From positions 1,859-65,858 of the forward strand of contig JAHWHG010000004.1 in NCBI GenBank assembly GCA_019323515.1: a stretch of DNA of 64,000 bases. The letters run 5' to 3'. Source of the stretch: Candidatus Woesearchaeota archaeon. Its GTDB lineage: Archaea > Nanobdellota > Nanobdellia > Woesearchaeales > JAHWHD01. Of the stretch, positions 1,546 through 52,027 are shown one piece after another (position 1 is the first letter of the stretch; each line of letters begins with the position of its first letter). The translations under genes and the position numbers were made by a program. The notes beneath the pieces were generated by a model. It saw only the letters and a program-made list of their open reading frames with translations, was not told the origin of the DNA and ran no database searches.

Positions 1546-1686
1546 GAATTAAGGAATAAAAATTTTAATCAAAACTAGTTTCTTTTCTAAATTATTTTTT
1601 TAGTTAACGCTTAAAACTTTTGTACAGAAAAATAAGGGTTCACTATTGACAATTTATTTAAACTAGTAAAGATTATTAATCTTGCA

Positions 1687-2148: not shown

Positions 2149-2283
2149 AAACATTAGATATTTATAGTAGTTCGCACAATATACATTGTATGTACCTTTA
2201 GTTATATGAAAATAAAGAGAAGTACAAAAAACGTATAATTTGGCTTGAAAAGGCCAGGCTTTTGAACAAAAAAGAGGCATGAA

Positions 2284-3093: not shown

Positions 3094-3144
3094 AACTTTT
3101 AATCAAAGATAAGAATTTGTTTGGCTAAAACATTTAAGAGAAGA

Positions 3145-3660: not shown

Positions 3661-3762
3661 ATATGGTTAGACAAAAGCCTATCTTAAATATTTTTCCAAT
3701 ATTGAATATCGAGAATAAAAATCAAAAGTTTTATAAACAATCGGGCGATTTATTTATATATT

Positions 3763-4473: not shown

Positions 4474-4487
4474 GCTGATTTCTGCTA

Positions 4488-4823
4488 GTCCCAAGTAGGA
4501 CTGAGACTATTTTATCGACGACAAACATTTTGGGAATGGGACTGAGACTGGAAGGAGAGATTAACGAGGGAACGAAATTTGCGCGTAGCGCGCTCTGCGC
4601 ACGAACTATATTCTATCAGTCCTAAATAAGGCTATTGGGACTGTCCCAAGATGGGACTGAGACTGTTTTGGGAGTATTTTGGGAATATGAAAGAGGGTTT
4701 TGGAGAGCAGTTTCTGACTTAGAAGTGCAAACATAAAGTATAAATAGTTAGTCTTATTTGGGATTATTGTGAGACTGGGACTATACAGTCCCAGGACTGT
4801 TTGGGAATGGGACTAAGACTGAC
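4488..4823. repeat. array of GGGACT / AGTCCC short repeats (both orientations), with a 23-nt unit TTTGGGAATGGGACT(G/A)AGACTG present twice
   Basis: GGGACTGAGACTG occurs at 4538-4550 and 4653-4665, and GGGACTAAGACTG at 4809-4821. Palindromes GGGACTGTCCC (4637-4647) and GGGACTATACAGTCCC (4777-4792) are present, with further GGACT copies at 4498, 4617 (rc) and 4794. A GC island lies at 4581-4603. Confidence 0.8.
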
Positions 4824-24046: not shown

Positions 24047-24220
24047 ATGGCAGGAAATAGAAGTAAATTGCAGTATCCTAACAAAAAGCAGTTTATGATT
24101 ACTATTCCTAAGTCTCTTGTTGCTGCCAAAGGTTGGAAGCAGGGAGATGAGCTTGAGTTTGTTCTTGATTCTAAAGGTAATATCGTGATGAAGAAAGTGA
24201 AGGTGAAGAAGAATGGATAA
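24047..24220 (+). CDS. AbrB/SpoVT (MazE-like) swapped-hairpin DNA-binding protein, 57 aa
   Basis: Not in the ORF track (<60 aa). Sequence: MAGNRSKLQYPNKKQFMITIPKSLVAAKGWKQGDELEFVLDSKGNIVMKKVKVKKNG. The segment ITIPKSLV..GWKQGDELEF is the AbrB-type motif. SD AAGGAG lies at 24039-24044, and the gene overlaps the next one by 8 nt. Confidence 0.7.
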   Translation: MAGNRSKLQYPNKKQFMITIPKSLVAAKGWKQGDELEFVLDSKGNIVMKKVKVKKNG

Positions 24221-25157
24221 GAAAGCACAGATAACTATATTCATAATTATAGGGATTTTGATAGTTTTACTTGGAGTGTTTGTATATATTTTTACAAGGA
24301 CTCCTGAGGTTCAGATAGAAGCAAATGTTGATGGAGTCAGAAGTTTTGTTGAGGGATGTATTCAGAACAGGTTAGAGAGAGGGATTGATTTAGTGTCAAT
24401 GCAAGGAGGAAGCATTTATCCTGTTGATTATATTGAGACTGAAGAAGGAGTAGTAGGGTTGGCTTATGATAGTAGAGATGTGTTTGTTTCAATTGAAGAG
24501 ATTGAGGTAGAGTTAAGCGCGTTTGTTACTAGCACTTTAGGTTCGTGTATCCAGAACTTTTCGTTGTTTGAGGAGCAGGGTTTAGATATTGAAGAGGGTG
24601 AGGCGTTTGCACGTGCAAGAGTTCTTCCTCAGGTTGTGAGGGTTGATGTTGAATATCCTTTGAAGATAGTTGATGGCGGGGTTGTTGAGTTAAATGAGTT
24701 TACAGTTAGTAAAGAATCTAGGGTTGCTGAAGCGCATACTGTGATAAAAAGTATTGTTGAGAATACTAAAGAGGATTGGATTGATCTTGCGTTTTTATCT
24801 TCACTTGGAGATGTTACAGTTCTGCCAGTGAGTTCAACTGAGCAGTTGTATTCAGTTAATTATGATGATTACAGTTTTGTTGCAGGGTTTAGATTTAGTG
24901 AGAACCTTGGTCCTGTGATTGATGCTGAGGAGAGGTATCAGTTAGTAGATGGGCAGTTGTTTACTCTTGATTTAGATGTGAGCGATCCTGAAGGCGATTC
25001 ACTTGAGTGTACAGATGACACGCATCTGTTTGATATCAGTTCAGATTGTAGGATTGAGTTTACTCCAGAAGTTCCTGGTGAGTATGAAGTATTGATAACT
25101 GCTAAGGACAGTCACAGGAATTCGGTAAGTAAAACAATTGTGTTTGAGGTAGCATGA
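24213..25157 (+). CDS. secreted/pilin-like protein with class III (type IV pilin-like) signal peptide and C-terminal Ig/cadherin-like domain
   Basis: MDKKAQITIFIIIGILIVLLGVF has the KKAQ plus hydrophobic stretch pattern of archaeal prepilin signals. The C-terminus DLDVSDPEGDSLECTDD...FTPEVPGEYEVLITAKDSHRNSVSKTIVFEV is like He_PIG/cadherin Ig domains. It is ATGA-coupled to the giant ORF. Confidence 0.6.
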   Translation: MDKKAQITIFIIIGILIVLLGVFVYIFTRTPEVQIEANVDGVRSFVEGCIQNRLERGIDLVSMQGGSIYPVDYIETEEGVVGLAYDSRDVFVSIEEIEVELSAFVTSTLGSCIQNFSLFEEQGLDIEEGEAFARARVLPQVVRVDVEYPLKIVDGGVVELNEFTVSKESRVAEAHTVIKSIVENTKEDWIDLAFLSSLGDVTVLPVSSTEQLYSVNYDDYSFVAGFRFSENLGPVIDAEERYQLVDGQLFTLDLDVSDPEGDSLECTDDTHLFDISSDCRIEFTPEVPGEYEVLITAKDSHRNSVSKTIVFEVA

Positions 25158-28100
25158 ATAGGTTTGAAGATATTTGGAAGAGAGGATTTGCAATCTTTGT
25201 AGTGTTAAGCTTAGTCTTAAGTTCAGTCAGTGTTAAAGCTGTGGAACCTGGTGAAGAGGGTTTTGACTGGGAGAAGGCAGACTATGAGAAGATTGATTAT
25301 ACTAAAATTACTGACATAAACAGTATTCCACAACAGTATTATTCTAAAATCCCATGGAGCAAGTTTCCAAAAGAAGTGATTGTTAAATTTAGTGGAGATG
25401 CACGTATCAGAGAACTGGTTAAAGTATTAGAGGTACAGTCAAAGGAAAGTTTGAAGTTACTTACATCAGCACAGGTTAAGAATATTTTAGGAGAGTTCAA
25501 GGACCTTAGTATCCTTAATCATGCGGAGGTTGCAAAAGCGTTGGTTGCTAAGGGTGAGTTTCCGGGTGGTGCTGTCCTTAACTTAGTTCCAGGGGTTGTA
25601 TACAAAGATGGGAAGCTGATTAATCCTAAGTTCCCAAATGGGCTTGGTATCAAGTCGCTTGGAAGTGATGTCACAAGTGTGTCAGCTGTTGTAACAGAGA
25701 TAGGAACTGAAGGGTTTATCATATGTAAAGGTACTAAGTGTAATGAGGTTACTTCAGCAATTGCTGGTGAATTTACCGGGGTGAGCAGGGATAAGGATGG
25801 AAATTTGGTGATTGATACTACTAATGGGCCTGTTAAACTTGATGGAAACATAAGAGCTGTTGTTGATGTTTCTGGGGATGTTGTTTATCTTACTGATGAT
25901 GGAACATTTATACAGCATAAAGGGTTTAGTTTTACAGCTCGCGGAACAACCCAGAAGACTAATTTCAAGTTTAAAGGCAATAAACTTACAATGGAAGGGC
26001 CTGGTGAGGTAAGCAGTGATGGTAATAGGGTTAGTGGTAAGGTTGAGGGAAGCTTTACTGTTGAGATTGGATTGACTGCTGATGAGTTTAAGGTTACTGG
26101 GAATAAGGCTGATATAACTGTATATGGGAAGGACAGGTATACAGGTGATTTTTCAAATGAGTATAAAGAAGGAAAGCTGATGATGTTCAGTCTTGACAGT
26201 TATATGTCATCTGCAAAAATTAGAGGGCATCTTGCGATAACTAATGATGATAATATCAAGAAGGTTTACATCACACAGAATAATCCAAATGCTAAGACAC
26301 TTGAGCAGGTGTGGCATAATGCTGCAGTTATAACTACTTTCAATGAAGAGAAGCTGAATATTGATAAGTTAAAGGATGCGGATGTTAAGAAGTATGTTTC
26401 GGATTCTATTGAGAAGAATAAAGCTAAGATTGAAGCTTTGAAGGCTGCTAAAGAGAAAGCTAAGACTGATTATGAGAAAAGCCAGATTCAAAGCAAGATT
26501 GATTATCTTGAGGTTTATGTGAAAGACCTTGAAGGGATTACTACAAAAGCTGCTTTAATGGGTGTTGTTGATAATACTATCAGCAGATTAGAGGCAGATA
26601 ATGCAAGGATATGGAAGACGCATCCTAATACAGGGTACCTTGAGGTTGTTAATTCTGATGTTAATCTGTATGGTGATAAGAAGTCTACTGATTCAATACC
26701 TGGAAGGTTAGTTATACTTCCAGGAAAGTCGAGTTATGGTGTTAGTGAATTGGATAGCAGGAGCATGAGCGGTGAGCAGGCCAATGTATACTCAATCTAT
26801 AGTCCGCCGGAGTATTCAGATGCGTCTGGTAAAGACCTGAAAAAGAGAGGAATAATGTATTGTGCTAGTGGCAGTACTGGTATAACAGGTGACATGTGCA
26901 GTGCAAGAGCAAAGACTTCTGTGGGATTAGTTGAAATCATGTCTGGGAGGGATAGTAGCGGTAATGGATATAGCAGGGTTTCAAGGAATTCTGCTGTGAA
27001 GAATAATGTTGATGATGCTGGGTTGATTGTTGTAGGACCTACATCCAAGGATGCAAGGACTAGCATGATTAAGCTTGATGCTGACGGGATACATGCAATT
27101 GATAGTTTGGTTGGTGAGGGCAAAAGCAGGGTCTATACAAATCCCACGATTATTGATAAGATTGCTGAGAATTATAAGAAAGTAAGGGATATTGCTTTAG
27201 GTGTTCTTAGAGCAGCTGGACTTTTGAGAGAGGATGAGAAGGTAAGTGAAGAGGCGAGGAAGAAAGCGCAGGAATTAAAGCAGAGATTAGCTGCGACGTT
27301 TGTTGAGGAGTTTAAGGATATAAGGGAGTTTGTTGCTGGTGAGTTGAGTGAGCTTGAAAAGAGAATGCCAGGTGTAACACAAAAGTTGATTGATCTTAAC
27401 ACATATAAAGTTGAGCAGAATGAACAGGGGTTGCTTTCTATGTTAGCTGCTGAGAAGGATGAGCAGATGAAGGACAGGATAAGGGCGAGTATACTTGATG
27501 TCTATAAAGCTCAGGGTGAGACTGGTAAAGAGGAGGCTTGGTTAAAGACATGGGAACAGCAGGCTCCTAATAGTAAGTGGTTGGCTACAATTAAAAGTCA
27601 AAGAGCGCAGCAGCAGACATTAAGAGTAGATTATAGTAAGATGACTAATGCAGAGCTTGAGGCATTGGCTGAGACAAAACCTACAGTTGCATTGTATCAA
27701 GAGTTGACTAACAGGTATCTTAAAGATAAGGATTATGCTAATGCGCAGAAGTATGCTGATTTAGCTAGGACAGAGGTTACTCTTGGTTTGGAGAGGGCTG
27801 AGTTTAATCTAGAGAAAGCAGGTTACAGTGATCTGTTTGACATGACTGACAGGATGACTACAGTGTATCAAACACTAGCTGATGTTAGTCTTGCGAATAA
27901 GGATAATCTTCTTGCTGAGGATGCGTCGAGGTTTAACCTGGCTATTAATAAAAGGAATTATAGAGCAGCACAGACATTAAGCGCTGCGTTGATTGCACAG
28001 GATAAGTTAAAGGATAATGTTGCTGCTTGGGAGAGTTATAGTAATGAGAATAAAGATGCAAGCAGACTATATGATAGAGCTGGAGTAAATCTGATTGATG

Positions 28101-31100
28101 CTTATACTAGGATTAAAGCATATGATAAAGTCGAAGAAAAGTATTTAGATATAGAAGTAACTAAAAATACTGATATTAAAAAAGAAGCTGATGTTGCATA
28201 TGTAAGATCATTGAATGTGCAGAGTAGTGAGTTGTTGAAGGATAAGAAATATGATGATGCATTAGCAAAAGCAAAGAGAGCTTTACAAGTTGATAAGAAT
28301 GATAAATTCTCTTTAAGTGTGATGTCATCAGTTGCTAGTTCTTATTATAGCAGTAAACGTTATGATGATTCAATTGCTCTTTTAGAGGATTTGAAGAACA
28401 GGAAAGGAAGTTTAACTGAATCTGAGAAAGTAACTCTTGCTGGAGCATATCATGGGAAAGGTAATATTGCAAAAGCTAAAGGGTTGTATGGAGAAGTTAA
28501 AGATGCATTTGAGAAGAAAGGTGTAGCAAAGTTATCTAATACAGATAAGTTTTCATATGCACAGGCACTTGATGGGCTTGGAGAGAGTGACAAAAGTTAT
28601 GAAGTATGGAAGCAATTATCACAGATAACTCCTGCTAATGATAATGAAAAGAATCTTAAGAGTATTGCGCAGAATGTTGTTAGTCAGATTGATACTACAA
28701 GAGGGTTCCAGGCAGCGCTAAAAGGGATCACTGAGAAACAGGAGACTGTGCAGGCTTATGATAAGGTTGTTGATGGCTTGAGTTCTAAGGATGCGCTAAG
28801 GTTAGCTAATAGTATTGCTGGGAAAGCAGACAAGTTTACAAAAGAAGCAGATGCAAAAGCTTTCTTAAAGAAAGTTGGACAAAGTAATTTCCAAGTTGCT
28901 GAGGCAAGGGCGATTAGTAGGGAGGGTCTGGACTTAGTTAAGCAAGGATTGCAACAAGTAAAAGAAGGTAAAGATGTTTCTCAAGCATTAGCAACATATA
29001 ATGGAGGATTGGATACGTTACTTAAGGCAACTATATCTCCAGATAAGAGAAAAGAATCTGGTGGCAAACTGGATAACCTAAGAGAAAAGATTCAAATTTT
29101 AAAAAGGCAGATTGCCGATGCAAAGGAGAGCAGAGACAAAGCTCCAAGCGGTTGGTTTGGCACTAAGACTAAAGAATATGAAACTTACAATTCATTATAT
29201 GAAGCTAGATTGAAGGATTTAGATGCGGCACAAAAGGAATATTTGAAATTAAGACAACAAATTCTTTCAGGTGCAAACCTTGCTGATAAGAGAGAATTAA
29301 TTAAGTTACAAGAGGATTTGCTTAGTGAACTTAGAGGCCAGAAAGCTCAAGGTTATTTAGGGTCTGCAGAAACAGTAAGACAATTAGAAGAGACAACTGA
29401 CCAATTTATTGCAGAAGTAGCAGGACAATATGGTTTCTTATTAGAAAGGTATGATCAACAATCAAGTGGATTGTGGACATTGATAGTTAGTGAGAAAGAA
29501 AAACTAAGGGATAGAAGTTATAACACATATCTAAAACAGGGTTATACTGCTGAACAGGCAAAAGATATGGCTGAAAAACAGGCCCAGGATTATGTTAATG
29601 TTCGGATGAAAAATATTGGTTTAGAAAATGCGGATTTGTTTCAAAAAGATTTACTTGATGCAAAAACAAAAAGGCAACAATTAAGTTTAGAAACAGATAA
29701 CCAAAGAAGGGAAGCTGCTGCTGCACATGCTGCAGGAGGGTGGAAAATTGGACAATATGTAATTGTCTCCAATAGAAATATTGATATTGTTAAAAATTGG
29801 TGGGCTTCAGATGGAGTTTTAACTGATTATACTAAAAAGGCAGAGGTTGGCTTCTTAGGGAATTTTGGATATAAGGTAGCAAATGGGGTAAGTAAAACAG
29901 TGGGTCTATTTTTAGAAGTGGGTCTGCCTGTTGCAATTGGTAGCTTGGTAGCAAATGTAAAAGACGGCGTCTTATTAGCTTCAGGAAGTGCAACAACCAA
30001 TGAACAGACAATACAAGAAAAGAATAAAGCAGTAGCAAAAAACCAACAAATAATACAAGGATTACAGTATCTAAGCAAAATTACACAAGAAACTTCTAGC
30101 GCAGATATGGAAGCACTTGCTAGAGCTGTGAAATCAAAGTCGACAACAGGATTGACTGACTCTCAGAAAAAGCTTTATGAGAAATATTTTACTGGAACTG
30201 AAGGTACGAAGGCAAAAGAATCAGTATTATTAGCTGTGACTGATAATAGATTAAACAACCAGGATTTTGGGCCGGGAGGAGTTTTAGAGTATGCATCTGG
30301 TGTCAATGATTTAACACCGGAAGAGATTGCAAAAAGACAGGCACTTCTAGCCAATGCGCAGAAGACTGAGTACTTCAAGGATGCAAGAAACAAATTATTG
30401 GCAGGATGGGGCTTGGATGAAAAAGGGGATTATTTTGCTGATAGTAAGGGGAATTATTTATCTCTTGAAGCTGGAGGAAGACTTCTTGGAAGATTAATAA
30501 ATCCAAAAGAGACGCTGACGCAGGTAACACATTTAGCATGGGCTAATGAAAACCTTGCAGGGGTATTAAATTTCTTCGGGACAAGTTCAAATGAATACGA
30601 AAAATTAAAGTATCTTAATAGAAAAGGATCTGAACTTGCGAAAACAACCCAAATGGTAAAGTTGCTTGAAGAAGGGAAATTCAAGGATTTGAGTGCGATA
30701 TATAATAATGAAGGCGATGTATTATCTCCAGAACAACATAAAGAGTACAGACAACTAATTGATTTAGATGTAAACTTAAGAACTGCGAGATTAGTGGAAA
30801 AGTATGGGAGTTATGACAAGATTCCACAATCAGAGATTCAAGCCATTAATAGACTTAAGGTTGCAGACGAAGTTGGGAGGTATAATTGGGAAGCTGCAAA
30901 GGGATATGCTCAACTTACCCAAGATCCTAATTTAGTGTCACAGGTCCAGGATACTCAGACTTATCAACAAACTCTGAATAGAATGGGTGAGACTGCCGGA
31001 TTCTTTGCAAATATGGCAATATTTGGTGCAGCAACTAGAGGACTTTCGTCACTTGGTGGAAAGATTCTTTCTTCTGAACCTGCAAAGACACTAGGTAGGA

Positions 31101-34100
31101 TAGTCAGTAAGAGTCAAACAGGTAAGAAAATTATAGATTTTGCTACTAAATATGCTGATGATGTAAGACTTGGACAGATGGCTGAGCAAATTGATGATGT
31201 GACAAATAATCTCGTTAAAGAAAGTTGGATGCTTAAGTTAAAGAATAAGGTTGTAAAGACTATTTGGAAAAATGCTGATGATGCTGCTGTCCAGACAGCT
31301 GATGACGCGCTTGCACAGATTACAAGCCTTAAGAATCAGTTTGTTAATGCAAGGGCTGCAGGTGATGTAACAAAAGCTAACCAAATAACTCAACAAATCG
31401 CAAGAATACAAGCTGATGCTTTAGCAAAGATAAATGGCCAATATCTAGGATTAGCAAAACAAGGTGCACAGATGTTAGTAAAATCTGCAAGTTTTGAAGA
31501 AATCAAGGAGGAAGCACAAGAAGAACTTGCAGGAGATATAGGTAAGAACCTCAAGGATAAATTAGGGGGTTCTGCTGGGGTTTTAGCAGAAGCACTTGTT
31601 ATTTTTTACAATATGAGAAAAGGAATTGTCAGCGGCACTATTTCAAGCGCAGATGTAAACCTTTACAACAACCAACTTAAAACAGCATCAAACGCGATGC
31701 TTAAACCTTTTGTAGATACTAATTTCCAAAATAAGGTCATTGTGTTCGATGGGAATAATTATGATTTCAAAACTAATCCAGATGGATCAATCACCTTGAT
31801 TAACAGCGATGGTGTTACTGTGAAAAAAATTGATGGACTTCTTGACTTACAAGCATTAGTAAGAGAAGGGAGAGTGCAGGTTCCAGGTGTTGTTGATTTG
31901 AATGTGTTAGTGGATAAAGCTGCATTAGATATACCTCTTAATGTTGAGAATGCAAGGACTGATGCTGAGATAGACACATTAAGGACAGAACTACTTGATC
32001 CTGGGATAACAGCAGAAAGGAAAGCAGAGGTACAAGCTAGGATTGAAAGCCTTGAGAGCCATAAAAATGAGATTGGAAAAAGCATTGATGCGCAAAAGTC
32101 TAATGTTGATATAAAACAAAAGAAACAGGAATTAGCTGATGCTGAGCAACAGGGTGACCTAAACAAGATACAGGAAACTACAACAGCCCTTAGAGAAGCT
32201 GAGACTGCAAGAGCTAACAGTCTTTCTGAACTACATACTGCACAAATTGAAGGGATTGAAGCAAGGAAGAGGGCTTATGAAAGTAAGATTGCTGAAACTA
32301 AGAAGACACTTGCGGGAGAGACTGATGCAAAGGTTCAGGCTGAGATTGAGGCAAAGTTGAATTCGTTACAGGCGCTTTTATTGGATGCTGATGTTGAGAT
32401 ATTGGCAGCAGAATCTGCAAAGTTAGAAGCAGAGATTGATAGTCTGAGAAAGCAGAGTAAGATTGCAAGTGATACCGAGAAAGCAAGACTTGAACAGGAG
32501 ATTGAGCAGAAAAGAAAGCAGTTACTTGATAAATCGATTCAGCAAAAAGAGGCAGAGATAGAGAGAGAACAGGCAGTGCAACAGACTGTGGCTGATGAAC
32601 TAAAGAAAGTAGAAGGTGACACCACTGGATTGTTTGTAGGGAGTGATATTTCGGGTTTAAGAGCGTTACAGGATGCAACTGATAGGTTAATCGAGCAAAA
32701 ACAAGAACAAAAAGAGACTTTAGAAAGGCAGAAGGAATTTAATGAGAAAGAAGGTAATGATGATGTTAAAAGACAGCAGAATGAGTTAGAAGAAAGAAAG
32801 AGTGATTTCTTTAGGGATGTTGAAGACTACCATGCACTTAAAGAGTCTGAAAAAGAGAGTGAAGCTGGTAAAGCTTTAAGGGCTAAGTTAGAGAATGAAC
32901 AAAAGGCAATAACTGTCAACCAATTACAGATTGATGCTGCAGTGCAAAAATCTTTAGGTACAACTGAGCCTGTTTCTGAAGAAGGAAGGCTTCAGAAGAA
33001 GGCATTGGAAAAGGTTGAATCGTCAATCAAAGAGGATCAGCAGCTTGACACCGACGAAAAAGAAGCAGTGAGCGAACTGACTAAGTTGCAGAATGAGAAA
33101 CAGAAGAAGGAAAGACAGGTTGAGTATGTTGAAGGAGAGATGGCAAAACCTGATGTTGGTGATGAGTATGAACTTGATGGGAAAAAGTATAAAGTAACTA
33201 ATATCTTAACAATCGGAGGAAAAACATATTATGAGGTTCAAACTGAGTCCGGCGAAATAAGAGGATTCACTGCAGAGAAGATACAGGCAGCGACTAAGAT
33301 TTCTAGTAGCCTAACTGCGAAGAGAGGGGTATTAAATACTATAAGGATACAACTTGAGAATGATATCAATAATATTGAAACACAAGAAAAAACTGTTGAA
33401 GAGAATTCTGATACTAAGGATGCACAAAAAGAGGCTGAGAAAGAGCCTGAACAAGTTACAAAAGAGAAAAGGATAACGGATTTGACTGCTCAGATTAATG
33501 AACTTGATGGTAAGATTGCTGAAGCTGAAAGGAATGGAGATTTTGTTTCACTTGAAGATCAACAAAGATTGAACAGGCTTAAGCTTGAGAGAGGCACATT
33601 AGAATTAGATTTACTATTAGGAAAAAAACTTGAACCGACAGAGGTGGAAGTTGCCAAGGAGCAGCAGGTGAAAGCCTTAACTGCTCAGATCAATGAACTT
33701 GGTGCAAAGATTGCAGAAGCTGAAAGAAGAGGTGACTTTGTCTCGGCTGAAGATCAACAGACTTTAGAGAGGCTTAAGACACAGAGGGCTGGTTTAGAGT
33801 TAGAGATATTATTAGGAGCAGACTTTGAAGCAGCAGAAGCAGTACAACCTGAACTAAAGATAGGAGAACCTGCCAAAGTCACAGAAGACGCAGGTACTCT
33901 AAAACAACAACTACAACAGCAAGGGGTACGCCAGGACCTAATAGACCAGGCTGGTGATGATATTGGCCAGTTAGAGACTTTGTTAAGAAGAGCAGGTACA
34001 CCAGAAAGCAGGGCAGAGGCAAGGCAGTTTGCAAGGAGAGTAACACCATCACAGATGGAGAGAAGCAGGTTGGCTGAACTAACAAGTGAAGCGCAAAGGG

Positions 34101-37100
34101 ACGTTGGTTCGGTATTAGATGCAATCTCTGGGGTAAGCTACCAGAGAGGAGCAGTTAATCTAGATTCAATCACATTAGGAGATATAGAGATAAAGATTGG
34201 ATATGGAAGAAGCCCATGGCTTGGACCTATCTATTCAGAACAGGTTGATGGGCAGTGGCAGATACAAATTGATACAGGAAGGTTAGCAAGTTTATTTGCA
34301 TCGTTAGACACACAACAGGAGCGTGATCTTGCATTTAAAGCATTGATTGCGCATGAGCTTGGAGAGATTGCAGGTGTGGAGAATGGTTTCTTGGTCGCTG
34401 ATGATTCTCATGTTATAGGAGCAAAGATTGCTAAGAATGTGTTGGGGGAGTTAACAACTGATTCTAAACAGTATATAAAGGTTAAACAGGCACTCAATAA
34501 TTTCGCATGGGCACAGAGTGATCCTATCAATATCGAAGGAGAAATGACTGAAGGAATACGTCAACGTGTATTGAGCGACTATCATTTCAGGAATAGTAAG
34601 TTAGCTTATGACAATCATTTAGTAAGGATTGCAGGGGGTGAAAAAGCTACAAGACCTATAGCAACAGTTTATCACAAGGTTGGAAAGACCTTTAAGGTAA
34701 TTTTTGAACATGGGAATGGAGAGGTGCAGATAGCGACGATTGATGTCATGGATTTCAAGAATCAAATCAATACTAGATATGGGCATATTGTAGGCGATAA
34801 TTTCATAACGCAGATTGGAGGTGCATTGGCAGATGCAATGGCTAATTGGGATGGAAGTGATGTTACAACCTACTTAAACAATCTGCTTAATGATAATGAT
34901 TTCAAGCAGAATATCATAAATAAAGTCCCTAATCAAAAGGTTGAAGCTCCTTTAGAGACTGATACAGAAAGCAAAGGTGATGATAGGAAGCTCAAGTTAG
35001 GTGAGTTTAATTTCTATGCTGGAGTTTCTGAAAGGTCAACAGTGGACAGCATACCGGGAGCGCAAAGGCTGAATGACCAGTCAACAGTTGCAGGTAAGAC
35101 TGCTGAGTTAAATATAGGTGGTGTTGATATTGATCTGTTGGCTGAAGTACAGAACAGGCAGCCTGAAGATGTATTAAGCGCTGATACTGTTAGCAGGCTG
35201 ACAGGAGGGTCAATACAGGGGTCAATGACATTGGATGCACTGCTTGCACAGCTTAAGACAAAGCAAGGTACAAAGGTCCTGGAGTTTGCTGACACAAATG
35301 ACTGTTGTAAGACAAAGGCAGTTCCGCAGATATTTGCAAATGAGTATGAATTCTTTGGAGAGAAGATAACAACAGCTGATATGACTGAATTGTTTAGGCA
35401 AAGACGAAGAGCAATTACAGAAGCGAATCTTGAACAGGCAAGGCAGCTAACAGAGGCTATATGGGAATCTGCATCACTTAACCAGGAGTTTGGAGGATAT
35501 CTTGATGGTAATGATCTTTTCAAGCTTGCAACTAACAAACTGCTTGATGACAGAGGCGACAGAGACTTTGCACAAGTGTTCATAATAGGAGGGGATGAAG
35601 TAGGTATTGTCAAGAGCGGTAATGGAAGAGTTACATTCGGAAGGATAGATATCAATAACTTTGGAAAGACCAATCAAAGGTATGGTGTTGAGTATGCTGA
35701 TGCATTAAAGGTTCAGATTCTAAAGATAATACAAAGGAACATTGAAGGAGAGATTAATGCTGATACTGCTAAGAAGATTAATACTGAGATACTAACTTAT
35801 GTTCAAAGCACAGGCAGGGAGTTCTCACAAGAACTTATGCCTTCTGTAAGTATAGGTATTATTAATGTTGATTCAAGGTTTAATGAGATTGATGCTACTA
35901 AACTGAATGAGTTAGCAGATGCTGCTAGCGAGAGGATAAAAGCAGAATCAAAGGCAAGGATAACTGATACAAGGACGACTGCTGATGTTGTGAATGAAGG
36001 CGGATTCTTTACAGAAGCTGAACCTGATTATGAAGTTATTGATAAACCAAGACCAACACCAATTACTGATTCGCTTGCTGACTGGATGTTTAACTTTGAC
36101 CAACAACAAAGGTTAAAGACGCCTGAACAGAAGAAGGCTGATGCTTTAAACGATCTGTTCTCAGATGATGTATGGCAGCAGTCTCCTTTGCAAGGGTTCC
36201 TGCACCAGACTGATAATCAAGGGAGGACAGTCCAGCAGAGGTTAGAGAGCAAACTTCAGAGCGGAGAGACTGCTGAGGATGTTGTCGCAGACATTAAAGC
36301 AGGAATCTTTCACAGATTCCCTAATGATTATATACCTGGTAATATTGAGGTTCTATTACAAGGATTCATCAATGATGTGAATGATATAGATGTTGAGACT
36401 ACTATTGATGATTTAGTTGATAAAGGTTTTACAGATGTTACAGAAGTTGGAAAAGGTGCTGTAGGGAATGTGTTTAAAGCAGAGAGAGCTGGAGAGACTG
36501 TTGCAGTCAAGACACTGCAGAGAGAGAAAGCTACTCCTGAAGCAGTTGCATTGTTTGAGAAAGAACCGCAAGTCTTAGCGCAATTGGATCATCCGAATGT
36601 TGTAAAGGCAAAAGAATCAGGTGTTAAAGACGCAAGGCCGTACTTTACTCAGGAATATGTTGAGGGAGAAGGTCTTGACCAGAAAGTAGCAGAGGCTAAG
36701 TATCAACAAAGGCCTTTATCAGTGCAAGAGGTTTCTGATGTTGCAGTGCAGTTGTTTGATGCATTGCAATATCTGCATGACAGGGGTATAATCCATAGGG
36801 ATATCAAGCCAGGGAATATAATCGTTGAACCAGATGGTACTATAAAACTAATTGATTTTGGATTTGCAGGGTTTGACCAGGAGTTAAGAGAGAGGTTTGG
36901 ACTTGAAGGTATACCTCAGGTTGGCAGTGCTCCTTATGACGCGCCTGAGATATTTAATGAAAAAAGAATGGCTGACAGGTTTGGGATAACTAAGTTTGAT
37001 GAGACTAAGGTTGACATCTATGCAGCTGCGTGGATGGTTTATGAGATGTTAACATTGAACAGTCCAATTTCTAGTGGACTTAAAGCAGATGTTGATTATA

Positions 37101-38248
37101 AAATTGATACTGACTTACTAAGAGCTAATGGTGTTCCAGAAAATCTTATACAGGTTTTAGAGCGTGCTTTAGCACAGAATCCTAATGAAAGGCCTGATGC
37201 TGCAAGCCTTAAAGCTGCATTTGAAACAACAACCACCCCAACTGGGTTAGAAGCGATAGTGGAAAAATCTGGTGAGCCAGTAAGTATCGGCAAGGTAATT
37301 GGAGGAAGGTATGATGTACAAACATCGATTGGTGTAGGCGGCTTTGGACAGACGTTCACTGCTGTTGACCAGGAGACAGGAAGGACTGTTGTGATAAAAG
37401 CGTTTGAGCCTAAAACAATGGAGCCAGCTGCAGTTGAACAGATGAAAGAATTGTTCAGAGAAGAAGCAAAAGTTCTTCAAAGACTGTCGCATGATGGAAT
37501 TGTTAAAGTGTTTGACGCTGCTCTTGAGGGAGATAATCCGTATATTGTTGAAGAGCATGTAAACGGTAAAACTTTGGAGTCTATGATCGGTGAAAGTACT
37601 GATCCAATGAGTCTTGAGACTGTGAATGATATTGCAGTTAAGGTTCTGGGGATTGTTGAGTATATGCATCAACAAGGTGTTATCCATAGAGATCTTAATC
37701 CTAATAATATAATAATAACTCCTGATGGAGATGTTAAGATAATCGATTTTGGTTTGGCAGGATTTGATAAAGAGTTTAGGACAAGGCATGGTTCCACTGG
37801 GTTCACTGGTGACTTTAAGTATGGAAGTCCAGAGCAGCTTGACTTAGATGGGTTCATGAAGACAGCTGAGTCTGATCCTGAATATGATGAGAAAGCGATG
37901 GATGCGTATACAATTGGAACTGTCCTCTATAATATGATGACCAAGAATAATCCTTTAGGATTGCCAAGTACTGCCACTTCAATAGGTTTCTTGGGTAAGA
38001 AAGGGGTAGGATATGATGCAGTTAATCCTACTGAATTCAATAAAGACATACCAAATGTGATTGCTGATGTTCTGCAGAGGGCTGTTACAAAGGATTACAA
38101 GCAGCGACCTACTGTTGCAGAGATAAAGAAAGCTTTTGATAATGTTGATGAGGACATTAACGTATTTGGAACAGAGGTTGGAGGAACTCCTAGTATTGCC
38201 ACAATTAATATAATGGAAGAAGCAAGAGCTGCAAGTTCATGCGGTTAA
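25154..38248 (+). CDS. giant (4364 aa) secreted multidomain protein: signal peptide, beta-rich region, TPR/coiled coil, GGDEF-like palm motifs, tandem Ser/Thr protein kinase domains
   Basis: A single uninterrupted ORF. The N-terminal signal is FAIFVVLSLVLSSVSVKA. TPR-like and long heptad regions are present, with a 65-aa tandem repeat at 33482-33817. IDVMDFKNQINTRYGHIVGDNF (about 34735-34800), GGDEV (35588-35602) and RIDINNFGKTNQRYG (35641-35685) are GGDEF-like. Kinase 1 has GKGAVGNV...VAVK...HRDIKPGN...DFG (36440-37220). Kinase 2 has GVGGFGQT...VVIK...HRDLNPNN...DFG (37290-38150). Confidence 0.85.
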   Translation: MNRFEDIWKRGFAIFVVLSLVLSSVSVKAVEPGEEGFDWEKADYEKIDYTKITDINSIPQQYYSKIPWSKFPKEVIVKFSGDARIRELVKVLEVQSKESLKLLTSAQVKNILGEFKDLSILNHAEVAKALVAKGEFPGGAVLNLVPGVVYKDGKLINPKFPNGLGIKSLGSDVTSVSAVVTEIGTEGFIICKGTKCNEVTSAIAGEFTGVSRDKDGNLVIDTTNGPVKLDGNIRAVVDVSGDVVYLTDDGTFIQHKGFSFTARGTTQKTNFKFKGNKLTMEGPGEVSSDGNRVSGKVEGSFTVEIGLTADEFKVTGNKADITVYGKDRYTGDFSNEYKEGKLMMFSLDSYMSSAKIRGHLAITNDDNIKKVYITQNNPNAKTLEQVWHNAAVITTFNEEKLNIDKLKDADVKKYVSDSIEKNKAKIEALKAAKEKAKTDYEKSQIQSKIDYLEVYVKDLEGITTKAALMGVVDNTISRLEADNARIWKTHPNTGYLEVVNSDVNLYGDKKSTDSIPGRLVILPGKSSYGVSELDSRSMSGEQANVYSIYSPPEYSDASGKDLKKRGIMYCASGSTGITGDMCSARAKTSVGLVEIMSGRDSSGNGYSRVSRNSAVKNNVDDAGLIVVGPTSKDARTSMIKLDADGIHAIDSLVGEGKSRVYTNPTIIDKIAENYKKVRDIALGVLRAAGLLREDEKVSEEARKKAQELKQRLAATFVEEFKDIREFVAGELSELEKRMPGVTQKLIDLNTYKVEQNEQGLLSMLAAEKDEQMKDRIRASILDVYKAQGETGKEEAWLKTWEQQAPNSKWLATIKSQRAQQQTLRVDYSKMTNAELEALAETKPTVALYQELTNRYLKDKDYANAQKYADLARTEVTLGLERAEFNLEKAGYSDLFDMTDRMTTVYQTLADVSLANKDNLLAEDASRFNLAINKRNYRAAQTLSAALIAQDKLKDNVAAWESYSNENKDASRLYDRAGVNLIDAYTRIKAYDKVEEKYLDIEVTKNTDIKKEADVAYVRSLNVQSSELLKDKKYDDALAKAKRALQVDKNDKFSLSVMSSVASSYYSSKRYDDSIALLEDLKNRKGSLTESEKVTLAGAYHGKGNIAKAKGLYGEVKDAFEKKGVAKLSNTDKFSYAQALDGLGESDKSYEVWKQLSQITPANDNEKNLKSIAQNVVSQIDTTRGFQAALKGITEKQETVQAYDKVVDGLSSKDALRLANSIAGKADKFTKEADAKAFLKKVGQSNFQVAEARAISREGLDLVKQGLQQVKEGKDVSQALATYNGGLDTLLKATISPDKRKESGGKLDNLREKIQILKRQIADAKESRDKAPSGWFGTKTKEYETYNSLYEARLKDLDAAQKEYLKLRQQILSGANLADKRELIKLQEDLLSELRGQKAQGYLGSAETVRQLEETTDQFIAEVAGQYGFLLERYDQQSSGLWTLIVSEKEKLRDRSYNTYLKQGYTAEQAKDMAEKQAQDYVNVRMKNIGLENADLFQKDLLDAKTKRQQLSLETDNQRREAAAAHAAGGWKIGQYVIVSNRNIDIVKNWWASDGVLTDYTKKAEVGFLGNFGYKVANGVSKTVGLFLEVGLPVAIGSLVANVKDGVLLASGSATTNEQTIQEKNKAVAKNQQIIQGLQYLSKITQETSSADMEALARAVKSKSTTGLTDSQKKLYEKYFTGTEGTKAKESVLLAVTDNRLNNQDFGPGGVLEYASGVNDLTPEEIAKRQALLANAQKTEYFKDARNKLLAGWGLDEKGDYFADSKGNYLSLEAGGRLLGRLINPKETLTQVTHLAWANENLAGVLNFFGTSSNEYEKLKYLNRKGSELAKTTQMVKLLEEGKFKDLSAIYNNEGDVLSPEQHKEYRQLIDLDVNLRTARLVEKYGSYDKIPQSEIQAINRLKVADEVGRYNWEAAKGYAQLTQDPNLVSQVQDTQTYQQTLNRMGETAGFFANMAIFGAATRGLSSLGGKILSSEPAKTLGRIVSKSQTGKKIIDFATKYADDVRLGQMAEQIDDVTNNLVKESWMLKLKNKVVKTIWKNADDAAVQTADDALAQITSLKNQFVNARAAGDVTKANQITQQIARIQADALAKINGQYLGLAKQGAQMLVKSASFEEIKEEAQEELAGDIGKNLKDKLGGSAGVLAEALVIFYNMRKGIVSGTISSADVNLYNNQLKTASNAMLKPFVDTNFQNKVIVFDGNNYDFKTNPDGSITLINSDGVTVKKIDGLLDLQALVREGRVQVPGVVDLNVLVDKAALDIPLNVENARTDAEIDTLRTELLDPGITAERKAEVQARIESLESHKNEIGKSIDAQKSNVDIKQKKQELADAEQQGDLNKIQETTTALREAETARANSLSELHTAQIEGIEARKRAYESKIAETKKTLAGETDAKVQAEIEAKLNSLQALLLDADVEILAAESAKLEAEIDSLRKQSKIASDTEKARLEQEIEQKRKQLLDKSIQQKEAEIEREQAVQQTVADELKKVEGDTTGLFVGSDISGLRALQDATDRLIEQKQEQKETLERQKEFNEKEGNDDVKRQQNELEERKSDFFRDVEDYHALKESEKESEAGKALRAKLENEQKAITVNQLQIDAAVQKSLGTTEPVSEEGRLQKKALEKVESSIKEDQQLDTDEKEAVSELTKLQNEKQKKERQVEYVEGEMAKPDVGDEYELDGKKYKVTNILTIGGKTYYEVQTESGEIRGFTAEKIQAATKISSSLTAKRGVLNTIRIQLENDINNIETQEKTVEENSDTKDAQKEAEKEPEQVTKEKRITDLTAQINELDGKIAEAERNGDFVSLEDQQRLNRLKLERGTLELDLLLGKKLEPTEVEVAKEQQVKALTAQINELGAKIAEAERRGDFVSAEDQQTLERLKTQRAGLELEILLGADFEAAEAVQPELKIGEPAKVTEDAGTLKQQLQQQGVRQDLIDQAGDDIGQLETLLRRAGTPESRAEARQFARRVTPSQMERSRLAELTSEAQRDVGSVLDAISGVSYQRGAVNLDSITLGDIEIKIGYGRSPWLGPIYSEQVDGQWQIQIDTGRLASLFASLDTQQERDLAFKALIAHELGEIAGVENGFLVADDSHVIGAKIAKNVLGELTTDSKQYIKVKQALNNFAWAQSDPINIEGEMTEGIRQRVLSDYHFRNSKLAYDNHLVRIAGGEKATRPIATVYHKVGKTFKVIFEHGNGEVQIATIDVMDFKNQINTRYGHIVGDNFITQIGGALADAMANWDGSDVTTYLNNLLNDNDFKQNIINKVPNQKVEAPLETDTESKGDDRKLKLGEFNFYAGVSERSTVDSIPGAQRLNDQSTVAGKTAELNIGGVDIDLLAEVQNRQPEDVLSADTVSRLTGGSIQGSMTLDALLAQLKTKQGTKVLEFADTNDCCKTKAVPQIFANEYEFFGEKITTADMTELFRQRRRAITEANLEQARQLTEAIWESASLNQEFGGYLDGNDLFKLATNKLLDDRGDRDFAQVFIIGGDEVGIVKSGNGRVTFGRIDINNFGKTNQRYGVEYADALKVQILKIIQRNIEGEINADTAKKINTEILTYVQSTGREFSQELMPSVSIGIINVDSRFNEIDATKLNELADAASERIKAESKARITDTRTTADVVNEGGFFTEAEPDYEVIDKPRPTPITDSLADWMFNFDQQQRLKTPEQKKADALNDLFSDDVWQQSPLQGFLHQTDNQGRTVQQRLESKLQSGETAEDVVADIKAGIFHRFPNDYIPGNIEVLLQGFINDVNDIDVETTIDDLVDKGFTDVTEVGKGAVGNVFKAERAGETVAVKTLQREKATPEAVALFEKEPQVLAQLDHPNVVKAKESGVKDARPYFTQEYVEGEGLDQKVAEAKYQQRPLSVQEVSDVAVQLFDALQYLHDRGIIHRDIKPGNIIVEPDGTIKLIDFGFAGFDQELRERFGLEGIPQVGSAPYDAPEIFNEKRMADRFGITKFDETKVDIYAAAWMVYEMLTLNSPISSGLKADVDYKIDTDLLRANGVPENLIQVLERALAQNPNERPDAASLKAAFETTTTPTGLEAIVEKSGEPVSIGKVIGGRYDVQTSIGVGGFGQTFTAVDQETGRTVVIKAFEPKTMEPAAVEQMKELFREEAKVLQRLSHDGIVKVFDAALEGDNPYIVEEHVNGKTLESMIGESTDPMSLETVNDIAVKVLGIVEYMHQQGVIHRDLNPNNIIITPDGDVKIIDFGLAGFDKEFRTRHGSTGFTGDFKYGSPEQLDLDGFMKTAESDPEYDEKAMDAYTIGTVLYNMMTKNNPLGLPSTATSIGFLGKKGVGYDAVNPTEFNKDIPNVIADVLQRAVTKDYKQRPTVAEIKKAFDNVDEDINVFGTEVGGTPSIATINIMEEARAASSCG

Positions 38249-38892
38249 GAGATTACTCTACGTTCTATGTTAAGCGCAATAGGAACTTCATAGTCAATCA
38301 ATAACTTATGACCAAATGCTTGGAATTTTCTTCTGCCATACATAAAACTTGACATCACATCTTTTCTAAACATTGGTTTTGCTTCTTGAGGTGTCCAGAT
38401 TTGTATCTTGCTTATTCTTCTTTTGATATCAGCGTCAACTGGCAAGCTTTCTATAGCTGAATCTGAGGTTATATCACAGAGGCAGCTTTCATCTGATAAG
38501 ATTTGTTTAAGGTCAACCCAGGAAGAAATTTTGTTAAGGTTAGATGCCTGAAGGTCCAGGTAGGAGATATACTTAAAGAGTTCATTATGGTCACAACCAG
38601 GGTTATATTCCATAAGTTTTGTGTGAAGTTTTTGTATGTAATACTGATATACTGGAAGCTCTCCTGTCTTTTCACAGTAGAGGTCATAAGACAGAATCAC
38701 TTTACTTTCAGGTTCTCCACCAAAGATAACCCTTTCCATTGTTTCACTTAGAACTTCACGGTTCTTTGGGCCTGTGAATGCTTCAATCTTGATGTTTTTA
38801 ACAAAGAACTCTAAGTTATGAATCTTCTTATAGTTCATGATTGAAGCTTTCAAGTCTTCTGCAATTAGTTTAGCCCTTTCAACAATCCCCAT
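38245..38892 (-). CDS. hypothetical protein
   Basis: 215-aa ORF convergent with the giant gene, with a 4-nt stop overlap. No motif recognised. Confidence 0.5.
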   Translation of the reverse strand: MGIVERAKLIAEDLKASIMNYKKIHNLEFFVKNIKIEAFTGPKNREVLSETMERVIFGGEPESKVILSYDLYCEKTGELPVYQYYIQKLHTKLMEYNPGCDHNELFKYISYLDLQASNLNKISSWVDLKQILSDESCLCDITSDSAIESLPVDADIKRRISKIQIWTPQEAKPMFRKDVMSSFMYGRRKFQAFGHKLLIDYEVPIALNIERRVIS

Positions 38893-39087: not shown

Positions 39088-39534
39088 ATGCAAGATTTGA
39101 GTAAGAAAGAGGCAGAAGCATTATTCCAGGAGTTTGTGGAATTTTTGAAAAAGAAGAAGATTTCTGTAAAGGGGTTAGGTGAGTATGCTATTCCCATCTC
39201 TATATTTTCCAAGAAGTTAAGCGCTACAGAAGCTGTTGTCAAGTACTTGCGTGAAGAGCATGAGCTAGGTTACAATAAGATTGCAAAGCTGCTGCATAAG
39301 AATCCTGGGCCTGTTGGTGTAACTTACAGGAATGCTAAAAAAAAGTTTAGAGGAAAGTTAAGTGTTGATTCTGATCATTTTATTCCAATAAATAAGTTTG
39401 ACGGAAAGAATACTGTATTTGAGGTTGTTGTTAAGTTTATGAAAGAGGAGTTAAAGTTTAGTTTCAAAAAAATTGCTAAGTTGATGGGAAGGAATTACAG
39501 GACTGTATGGACTGTGTATAGGAGGGCTGCATGA
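39088..39534 (+). CDS. small DNA-binding protein with two tandem HTH-like repeats
   Basis: Internal duplication: ...LSATEAVVKYLREEHELGYNKIAKLLHKNPGPVGVTYRNAKKKF versus ...TVFEVVVKFMKEELKFSFKKIAKLMGRNYRTVWTVYRRA, a sigma-r4/LuxR-like HTH pattern. The stop overlaps the ATG of the 2387-aa ORF (ATGA). Confidence 0.6.
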   Translation: MQDLSKKEAEALFQEFVEFLKKKKISVKGLGEYAIPISIFSKKLSATEAVVKYLREEHELGYNKIAKLLHKNPGPVGVTYRNAKKKFRGKLSVDSDHFIPINKFDGKNTVFEVVVKFMKEELKFSFKKIAKLMGRNYRTVWTVYRRAA

Positions 39535-51931: not shown

Positions 51932-52027
51932 GCCTCTGTAGCATAGTAGCTATTGCGATGGCCTTGTATGCGTTATAATAACGTAGAAGTAAGCCATAGG
52001 TCGGGGGTGCAAATCCCCCCAGAGGCT
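51932..52027 (+). tRNA. tRNA-Thr(UGU) with 23-nt canonical (37/38) intron
   Basis: Acceptor GCCTCTG/CAGAGGC; anticodon stem ATGGC/GCCAT; loop CTTGTA|intron 51969-51991|A; T-arm GGGGG-TGCAAAT-CCCCC; discriminator T. The D-loop lacks GG and the T-loop reads TGC rather than TTC, which is unusual. Confidence 0.75.

Follow-up and report, generated by a model that had tools for sequence, protein, structure and literature searches.

The 64,000-nucleotide (nt) stretch of contig JAHWHG010000004.1 (GenBank assembly GCA_019323515.1, Candidatus Woesearchaeota archaeon) analyzed here, referred to as the window, encodes a protein of 4,364 amino acids (aa) that combines a predicted Sec-type signal peptide, a tandem GGDEF-like module, and two C-terminal Hanks-type Ser/Thr kinases, and that is devoid of N-glycosylation sequons from end to end. 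It is one member of a very small family of giants from Woesearchaeota-type (DPANN) archaea, with lengths from 2,082 to over 7,281 aa, that has apparently not been described before. An initial annotation of the same DNA had described the open reading frame (ORF), its secretion signal, its coiled coils, and its kinases; the GGDEF-like module, a pilin-like partner gene, the gene family, and the purge of sequons are additions of the present analysis. That annotation had also remarked on the paradox of kinases on an apparently exported protein, and the paradox is real. The interpretation favored here, at roughly even probability, is that the whole chain, kinases included, would be exported as an effector or contact protein whose kinases would work in a partner cell, a proposal built on sequence features.

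Sequon avoidance along the entire chain

Archaeal N-glycosylation occurs at the sequon N-x-S/T on the outer face of the membrane. The oligosaccharyltransferase AglB exists in DPANN archaea (PMC8993221). When sequons (N-x-S/T, where x is not P) were counted and compared with the number expected from amino acid composition, the 4,364-aa protein contained 0 versus 25.8 expected (Poisson P 6e-12), and 2,000 shuffles of its sequence gave a mean of 26.0 (standard deviation 4.6) and a minimum of 14. The deficit extends over the C-terminal 2,760 residues (1604-4364; 0 versus 15.7, P = 1.5e-7) and includes the kinase part (0 versus 2.5). It is also specific, as the reverse motif S/T-x-N occurs 25 times (25.8 expected), Q-x-S/T 31 times (28.5 expected), and D-x-S/T 41 times (37.4 expected), while the non-glycosylatable N-P-S/T is enriched both here (2 versus 0.6) and in the family (17 versus 6.9). 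A DNA-level or structural (Asx-turn) cause of the gap was considered and rejected because neither D-x-S/T nor the reverse motif departs from expectation and N-P-S/T exceeds it.

The same pattern is found in the relatives of the protein, which were identified through the GGDEF-like module and are described below. Eight relatives with a combined length of 31,056 aa contain a single sequon versus 201.1 expected, and this one site (NKS at residue 6 of P0080) lies in the cytoplasm-facing n-region of a signal peptide. The long open frames of loci L004 and L002 contain 0 sequons versus 50.8 and 26.5 expected, respectively. The other 39 ORFs of at least 150 aa in the window (leaving out its two giant genes) carry 48 sequons versus 47.5 expected, and they include a putative surface LVIVD protein (10 versus 7.5). 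Density is also normal in the partner gene immediately upstream of the giant gene (1 versus 1.1). Sequon density is unremarkable in the neighbors of P0080, and the neighbors of P0085 and P0081 contain 16 (13.2 expected) and 31 (20.5 expected). One neighbor of P0081, a 337-aa protein (locus L007, 980-1993) with 17 sequons versus 6.6 expected, is probably a heavily N-glycosylated surface protein, and its excess implies that these organisms do use sequons. The sequons have thus been purged from the giant proteins specifically, and we infer that exposure to AglB caused the purge. Since it covers the full length of the protein, the purge suggests that every part of the chain comes by the side of the membrane on which the oligosaccharyltransferase works.

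Topology of the giant protein

The N-terminus (MNRFEDIWKRGFAIFVVLSLVLSSVSVKA) has a positive n-region, a hydrophobic core with a 19-residue Kyte-Doolittle mean of 2.27, and V-K-A at positions -3/-1 followed by acidic residues, and it is read as a Sec-type signal peptide (25154..25240 on the forward strand, residues 1-29) with a predicted cut after VKA. The signal-peptide and topology calls follow manual rules (Kyte-Doolittle hydropathy, charge, and -3/-1 site) rather than a dedicated predictor, and the KRG-FAIF of the same N-terminus is also readable as a class III site. By these rules the Sec-type N-terminus proposed in the initial annotation holds, and equivalent peptides recur in relatives: four full-length family members begin with one, and the same n-h-c/AxA layout is present in P0080, P0081, P0085, and the second giant protein of the window.

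As ways out of the paradox, the initial annotation had offered a membrane anchor with a cytoplasmic bulk or delivery into another cell. An N-terminal signal anchor that left the whole bulk in the cytoplasm of the producer (N-out/C-in) would set the kinases and the GGDEF-like module beside ATP and GTP, but the flanking charges, positive in the n-region and acidic after the core, predict N-in/C-out and put the chain outside (likewise in P0080, P0081, and P0085), an AxA-type cleavage site is present, and the purge of sequons (0 versus 25.8 overall and 0 versus 15.7 for residues 1604-4364) is not seen in cytoplasmic neighbors. The anchored arrangement is accordingly considered very improbable.

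The only internal hydrophobic segment (29885..29962, forward strand, residues 1578-1603; TVGLFLEVGLPVAIGSLVANV) reaches a Kyte-Doolittle value of 1.85 over 19 residues, and a type I receptor could be built around it, with a cleaved signal, an ectodomain at residues 30-1577, a helix at 1578-1603, and a cytoplasmic part made up of the coiled coil, the GGDEF-like module, and the kinases. Such a receptor would suit output enzymes that require ATP or GTP, and nanohaloarchaeal giants have been described as combining a Sec signal and a huge ectodomain with an ATPase that faces the cytosol (PMC10266531). Nevertheless, a receptor of this kind seems unlikely because the C-terminal part that it would place in the cytoplasm is sequon-free as well, whereas the cytoplasmic proteins of the window are normal in this respect. 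In addition, the segment contains Glu and Pro; the L004 frame (6,950 aa) and P0085, which carry the same module, have nothing above a Kyte-Doolittle value of 1.5 (P0085 past its signal peptide); and the only such hydrophobic segment of P0080 comes after the module. The segment resembles a repeated hairpin motif (AIPIIGxLIA) of L002 and ALIPIAGPAALGIIG of P0080, and, as a matter of speculation, it may insert into the membrane without acting as a stop-transfer anchor. Several relatives and the second giant protein of the window have no hydrophobic segment past the signal peptide. Export of the whole chain explains the charge distribution, the sequon purge, and the segment-free relatives together, and delivery into another cell would fit these observations.

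The two kinases and the integrity of the gene

The Pfam model Pkinase (PF00069) matches the C-terminal part of the protein in two stretches (E 1.2e-88; 297.3 bits versus a gathering cutoff of 31.7). Kinase 1 (K1; 36440..37216, forward strand, residues 3763-4021), with its best stretch under the PK_Tyr_Ser-Thr model, has all Hanks motifs (GKGAVG at 3766, VAVK at 3783 with K3786, HRDIKPGN at 3881-3888, DFG at 3901, and APE at 3930). Kinase 2 (K2; 37310..38131, forward strand, residues 4053-4326), with its best stretch under the Pkinase model, has all of them except the catalytic-loop Lys (GVGGFG at 4060, VVIK at 4079-4082, HRDLNPNN at 4178-4185 or nt 37685-37708, DFG at 4198-4200, and SPE at 4225). 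The significance of the Pfam match, far above its cutoff, and the scoring of the catalytic residues agree with the initial annotation in recognizing two complete Hanks-type kinases, including the substitution of Asn 4182 for the catalytic-loop Lys of K2, a position that is occupied by Lys in 71 of 72 catalytic loops of the retrieved kinase homologues and by Thr in the remaining one. The suggestion that K2 might be a pseudokinase was not supported, in that the G-loop, the beta3 Lys, the HRD Asp, the catalytic-loop Asn, DFG, and SPE are all kept. With only the catalytic-loop Lys changed, altered activity is possible and loss is not indicated; judged from its motifs, the activity of K2 is probably modified rather than lost.

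K1 and K2 are 33-37% identical and have in common an unusual DFGxAGFDxExRxRxG segment, which indicates that the pair arose by tandem duplication. Apart from a Woesearchaeota fragment that aligns with the module, the C-terminal third of the protein matches only generic bacterial kinases at ~30-35% identity, and the nearest solved structures are bacterial kinases of the Stk1 type (4eqm from S. aureus, E 8e-30), StkP, PknA, and PknB, together with eukaryotic PAK/STE20 kinases. All catalytic motifs are common to the bacterial PknB/Stk1/StkP kinases, which provide the best structure matches, but the score of the PknB_PASTA_kin model (304 bits) remains under its cutoff of 450 bits, PASTA repeats and a juxtamembrane transmembrane helix are absent here, and the kinases form a tandem that ends a 4,364-aa chain, with Asn for the catalytic-loop Lys in K2. 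None of the NCBIfam models reaches its cutoff on the 4,364-aa protein.

The gene itself is a single uninterrupted open frame of 4,364 codons (25154..38248, forward strand, 13.1 kb) with an ATG start, as the initial annotation had reported. The ATG overlaps the stop codon of the upstream partner gene by 4 nt (ATGA), and the start at 25154 is supported by P0080, which shows the same 4-nt overlap and an alignable N-terminus. At the other end of the gene, a convergent 215-aa ORF on the reverse strand (38245-38892), for which Pfam has no match, shares 4 nt with the stop codon, and a small convergent ORF likewise overlaps the end of the P0080 gene in locus L003.

The initial annotation had cautioned that a sequencing or assembly error, such as a chimeric contig, might have fused genes artificially, and a chimeric contig or frameshift-fused genes were considered here as an artifactual source of the kinase fusion. 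A metagenome scan did not find a second contig spanning the junction between module and kinases, its matches being L004, a giant relative that has no kinase, and L005, an unrelated kinase from high-GC bacterial DNA, and the 4,364-aa protein is absent from a collection of 15 billion proteins. A neighboring GTPase is missing from that collection too, which therefore does not cover the source genome. On the other hand, the frame is open across all 13.1 kb, GC content at third codon positions (GC3) is 0.29 in the kinase part versus 0.30 in the rest of the gene with a codon usage correlation of r = 0.86, and the kinase part is equally sequon-free (although just 2.5 sequons are expected there). Such sizes and cargo fusions are normal in the family, as demonstrated by relatives that reach 4,742 and 7,281 aa and by frames open for 6,950 aa or more. 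Open frame and uniform composition thus argue for a genuine gene, and an artifact is regarded as extremely improbable.

The tandem GGDEF-like module

The family is defined by a module of ~490 aa (34556..36028, forward strand, residues 3135-3625) that was delineated with a profile, an alignment, and an AlphaFold2 (AF2) model, and in the family alignment it consists of two GGDEF-like units joined by a conserved linker of ~250 aa. In unit 1, a hairpin (YHKVGKTFKVIF, residues 3173-3184) precedes beta1 (IATIDVMDFKNQINTRYGHIVGD, residues 3193-3215), and the signature is degenerate, (V/A/G)GKTF. Unit 2 contains FIIGGDEVGIV (3476-3486), GRIDINNFGKTNQRYGVEYAD (3496-3516), SIGI (3564-3572), and the helix ADAASERIKAESKA (3587-3601); across the family its GGDE (3479-3482) is invariant and is followed by R-x-D-x-N-x-F, a SIGx strand, and an AD..E..K helix. 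A Cys-Cys pair in the linker (35303-35308, residues 3384-3385) is kept in L002 and P0080, proteins that otherwise contain 0-0.6% Cys.

The Pfam model GGDEF (PF00990) scores 30.5 bits versus a cutoff of 23.8 at residues 3188-3231, covering only profile positions 30-72 of 161, while TIGR00254 scores 25 bits versus a cutoff of 37.4; in relatives, the match to PF00990 extends up to positions 9-135. When searched against the Protein Data Bank (PDB), the family profile of the module retrieves diguanylate cyclases at E 3e-8, a result driven by the unit 1 half-site IATIDVMDFKNQINTRYGHIVGD. An AF2 model from a seven-sequence alignment (mean confidence, pLDDT, 76.4) has WspR, the diguanylate cyclase of T. 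maritima, and GcbC as its top Foldseek matches, with a probability of 0.84-0.99, E values no better than 7.6e-3, and a target-normalized TM-score (TMt) up to 0.55.

Common to the module and to GGDEF diguanylate cyclases (e.g., PleD, WspR, and DgcZ) are the beta1-alpha1-alpha2 half-site D-x-x-x-FK-x-x-N-x-x-x-GH-x-x-GD and, in unit 2, GGDE and the C-terminal AD..E..K helix; GGDEF domains are also the best matches of the predicted fold. The differences are the presence of two units per chain, the linker, the (V/A/G)GKTF signature of unit 1, and a permuted hairpin. The canonical GG(D/E)EF position, in the hairpin after alpha2, is occupied in neither unit, as VGKTF of unit 1 precedes beta1 and GGDEV of unit 2 precedes the RIDINNFG strand. 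Unit 1 (34670-34798) is circularly permuted between subfamilies, such that the hairpin YHK-x-GKTFK precedes beta1 in the window protein, P0080, P0081, P0082, L002, and P0001, and in the canonical place after alpha2 (as YHKGGKTFK) in P0083, P0084, and P0085. From the profile matches and the predicted fold, we conclude that the module is probably GGDEF-derived and not a canonical diguanylate cyclase. Its two units may pair within the chain as a pseudo-dimer, in which one site would be degenerate and the other possibly active.

A family of giant proteins with a pilin-like partner

An exhaustive HMMER search of 1.84 billion representative proteins with the module profile yielded about 10 real relatives, nearly all of them giant. 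These include P0080 (7,281 aa; locus L003, 10001-31846), P0081 (4,742 aa; locus L007), P0083 (3,647 aa), P0082 (2,900 aa, with a cluster mate of 5,141 aa), P0084 (2,293 aa), and P0085 (2,082 aa; locus L006), the last of which is labeled 'diguanylate cyclase [Ca. Woesearchaeota]' at NCBI. Among open frames in DNA, locus L002 (1-15057) encodes at least 5,018 aa on a contig labeled 'uncultured Methanosarcinales archaeon', a label that may be a binning error (GC 34.5%); L004 (1-20852; JGI Ga0066641_10000018) is a single frame of at least 6,950 aa that occupies the whole 20.9-kb locus and runs off both ends; and L001 continues P0001, the Woesearchaeota fragment that a search with the C-terminal third had matched over residues 3135-3616, to at least 3,085 aa, with the frame open beyond the fetched DNA. 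The module of the 4,364-aa protein is 21-41% identical to those of 11 relatives by BLAST (25-41% for core members), and its nearest relatives carry the label Candidatus Woesearchaeota. Outside the module the family proteins cannot be aligned, except for residues 29-348 of P0080 with residues 34-356 here, and a word-index search with residues 1-1650 gave no match. A search with a six-sequence alignment of the module, capped at 8,000 candidates, missed even P0001, and its empty result is attributed to the cap and not taken as absence. Three further candidates (P0086, P0088, and P0096) were rejected as family members on account of weak module scores (E 5.7e-9, 3.1e-8, and 2.6e-4) and normal sequon density. 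A literature search, whose incomplete coverage does not amount to proof of novelty, turned up no earlier account of the family, nor of giant archaeal proteins that avoid sequons.

Immediately upstream of the giant gene lies a partner gene of 314 aa (24213..25157, forward strand) with a class III-like N-terminus (MDKKAQITIFIIIGILIVLL) and a weakly immunoglobulin (Ig)-like C-terminus. Judged by eye, its N-terminus MDKKA-QITIFIIIGILIVLLGVFVYIF resembles an archaeal class III (prepilin-like) signal, as do the signal-like starts of the partners in L003, L006, and L007 (MKG-QVSVF, KRG-QITVF, and GRG-QVTLY, respectively). Partner homologues stand directly upstream of P0080 (L003, E 1e-33) and P0085 (L006, E 3e-24), each with a 4-nt overlap, so that three of four loci show a pilin-like gene running 4 nt into the start of the giant gene. 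In the fourth, L007, the pilin-like gene is two genes upstream of P0081, and the gene that overlaps the start of P0081 by 4 nt (4435-4704) encodes an 89-aa MarR-type helix-turn-helix (HTH) protein instead. The pilin-like gene and the giant gene form a translationally coupled unit.

The domains combined with the module differ from one protein to the next. Metallophos domains (PPP-type phosphoesterases) are present in P0081, L002, and L004, FHA domains in L002 and L004, a HAD domain in L002, HEAT repeats in L002 and P0082, and a GT2 domain in P0082. In P0080, the module is accompanied by domains of the SLT lytic transglycosylase, peptidase M48, and ABC1 kinase-like types; within the family, Hanks kinases are found in the window protein alone. 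The L002 protein has eight pairs of strongly hydrophobic segments (AIPIIGxLIA) between its HAD, Metallophos, FHA, HEAT, and GGDEF-like domains. A separate SLT protein is encoded at the start of locus L003, and this gene, together with the SLT and M48 domains of P0080, hints at cell-wall attack. Four traits are therefore common to the family, namely Sec-type signal peptides, the tandem GGDEF-like module, the pilin-like partner, and variable cargo of cytoplasmic type.

These traits also bear on the possibility of a purely extracellular surface, adhesion, or matrix protein, in which the enzyme-like domains would be relics or would work on scavenged nucleotides, and in which sequons would be avoided for the sake of folding, passage through the surface layer (S-layer), or economy. 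The signal peptide, the pilin-like partner, the scarcity of Cys, and the lack of a robust transmembrane helix are consistent with such a protein, as are the SLT and M48 domains of P0080, which act outside cells, and the degenerate signature of unit 1. However, both kinases have kept nearly their full set of catalytic residues since they were duplicated long ago (33-37% identity), and this retention implies that catalysis has been under selection; in unit 2, GGDE, RxD, and further positions do not vary among family members; and the cargo consists mostly of nucleotide- or phosphate-dependent intracellular types (FHA, PPP-type phosphatase, and ABC1). A solely extracellular role is thus judged rather improbable.

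Other regions of the protein and the surrounding genes

Behind the signal peptide, an N-terminal beta-rich domain (25253..26221, forward strand, residues 34-356) is recognizable by its BLASTP match to residues 29-348 of P0080 (E 5.5e-8 to 7e-12); searches of Pfam and PDB with this domain gave no match. The few Cys of the protein include residues 191 and 196 in this domain and a second pair (570/582) beyond it. A charged region without Pro (32006..33781, forward strand, residues 2285-2876; 43-51% E/K/Q/R/D residues) is coiled-coil-like by a crude heptad score. The long coiled coils of the initial annotation are therefore verified only in part, as clustered heptad segments in this region by that score. 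Inside the region, 33452-33745 contains a pair of 33-aa repeats that are 70% identical (residues 2767-2799 and 2832-2864), and a small beta-rich insert is present at residues 2672-2710. Searches of PDB with phmmer using residues 30-700, 641-1600, 1601-2300, and 2901-3140 returned nothing at E <= 0.1. The sequence HELGE at 3066-3074 was rejected as a zincin motif, as it is not HExxH, has no profile match, and is not kept in relatives.

The second giant secreted protein of the window (39531-46694, 2,387 aa) has a predicted Sec signal (MKKVISVLLIFVLLLSSVSADC), HEAT repeats, and an adenosine-deaminase-like domain, and it has no other hydrophobic segment and 0 sequons versus 13.6 expected. Similarity between this protein and the 4,364-aa protein was not detectable. 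A 148-aa HTH gene (39088-39534) overlaps the start of the second giant gene by 4 nt, paralleling the HTH gene before P0081, although no similarity links one HTH protein to the other. Elsewhere in the window, archaeal housekeeping genes are present (e.g., a YGR210-type Obg GTPase, L10P with the archaeal/eukaryotic insert, GatD/GatE, CDC48, TruD, and an Rpb7-like subunit), and GC content is 34-41%. This gene content marks the window as part of an archaeal chromosome, and the labels of homologues, rather than a phylogeny, assign it to a DPANN-type archaeon, probably one of the Woesearchaeota. A 96-nt tRNA (51932-52027) found by Rfam (55.8 bits) and missed by ARAGORN is probably an intron-containing archaeal tRNA.

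A possible mode of action

If the whole chain is exported, the Sec-type signal peptide, as read by sequence rules and conserved in relatives, would send it over the cytoplasmic membrane, and all 4,364 residues would reach the outer face, where they would be exposed to AglB and where any glycan would be harmful. The protein would be made together with the translationally coupled pilin-like protein, and the two would probably work jointly at the surface or at a contact site. The conserved N-terminal domain and the helical regions may serve in anchoring or recognition, with the coiled-coil-like stretch of ~600 residues as a spacer. The GGDEF-like module and the two Hanks kinases would then act inside a partner or host cell, or within a cytoplasmic bridge, and the kinases would phosphorylate Ser/Thr targets there; as this C-terminal cargo needs GTP or ATP, a nucleotide-containing compartment of the partner, host, or bridge is its most likely place of action. 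A ban on glycans would follow if an unfolded or extended chain has to thread its way through a tight opening, for example a pore of the S-layer, a conduit resembling a pilus, or the membrane of a host. The cargo of the family, which amounts to a phospho-Ser/Thr and nucleotide-signaling toolkit, fits the manipulation of another cell.

Several points weigh against this interpretation. The junction between module and kinases was found in no relative, and to date kinases as cargo are known only from the 4,364-aa protein; the segment at 1578-1603 could, at its hydropathy, be a transmembrane helix; and outside a cell, there is nothing for kinases and GGDEF-type enzymes to act on. Sequon avoidance indicates location only indirectly and its cause is deduced, and it was assessed in only 64 kb of this genome, where neither a secretion ATPase nor any other delivery machinery is encoded near the giant gene. 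Finally, the signal peptide and topology are rule-based, the host is hypothetical, and the enzymatic activity of every domain is a prediction from sequence.

Relation to known systems and significance

The closest biological analogues are the SPEARE giants of the Nanohaloarchaeota (DPANN), e.g., SVXNc_0300 with 9,409 aa, which, in PMC10266531 (and Hamm et al. 2019 as cited there), are described as having a Sec signal, an Ig-like/beta-propeller ectodomain, a membrane anchor, and a cytosol-facing VirB4/TraG-like ATPase. The SPEARE giants and the 4,364-aa protein alike come from DPANN archaea, run to thousands of residues, start with a Sec signal peptide, and are proposed to contact or manipulate a host cell. 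Pfam finds none of the SPEARE domains in the 4,364-aa protein, which in turn has the tandem GGDEF-like module and the two Hanks kinases, lacks a convincing anchor, and is completely purged of sequons, a separation based on the published description of the SPEARE domains. In architecture only, and with no specific homology, a giant scaffold that ends in two kinase domains is also known from obscurin/UNC-89 (PMC11487192), but these are eukaryotic, intracellular, Ig- and fibronectin (Fn)-rich muscle proteins.

With respect to delivered cargo, the protein can be compared with toxins and effectors of other organisms. By analogy only, it is like MARTX and Rhs/CDI proteins, giant exported proteins in which a conserved delivery or scaffold part is combined with swappable enzymatic cargo, although homologous repeats, an autoprocessing domain, and an immunity gene were not recognized here and the organism is an archaeon. 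Exported Hanks-fold kinases that are active inside another cell include the secreted effector kinases LegK of Legionella, YpkA/YopO of Yersinia, and ROP18/ROP5 of Toxoplasma; the ROP kinases take a Sec-type secretory route and include tandem or pseudokinase paralogues. All of these are small bacterial or eukaryotic proteins delivered by type III or type IV secretion systems (T3SS, T4SS) or by rhoptries, and the LegK1 model scores 63.5 bits versus a cutoff of 550 on the 4,364-aa protein, which is not a member of that group. We know of no archaeal secreted effector kinase.

DPANN archaea make up a large part of archaeal diversity, and how they attach to and exploit their hosts is an open question, with almost no effectors known. 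The locus described here offers a concrete candidate, a putatively exported protein with two apparently intact Ser/Thr kinases, and the family offers interchangeable signaling cargo together with a conserved pilin-like partner. With its two GGDEF-like units in tandem and its circular permutation, the module may represent a nucleotide cyclase arranged in a new way. Sequon avoidance, which is computable from sequence alone, reports on the topology or fate of a protein and can be scanned for across archaeal genomes. A broader proposal, advanced tentatively and at less than even confidence, is that the sequon-purged giants would be the first recognized archaeal inter-cellular effectors, exported by Sec and freed of every N-glycosylation site so as to be threaded into a host cell or a cytoplasmic bridge, with swappable cargo that rewires the Ser/Thr-phosphate and nucleotide signaling of the host. 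If this is true, the cargo would be two kinases here and PPP-type phosphatases, FHA, and ABC1 domains in relatives, beside a GGDEF-type cyclase-like pair, and the absence of sequons from a protein with a signal peptide would provide a simple genome-wide marker for the translocated effectors of archaeal symbionts.

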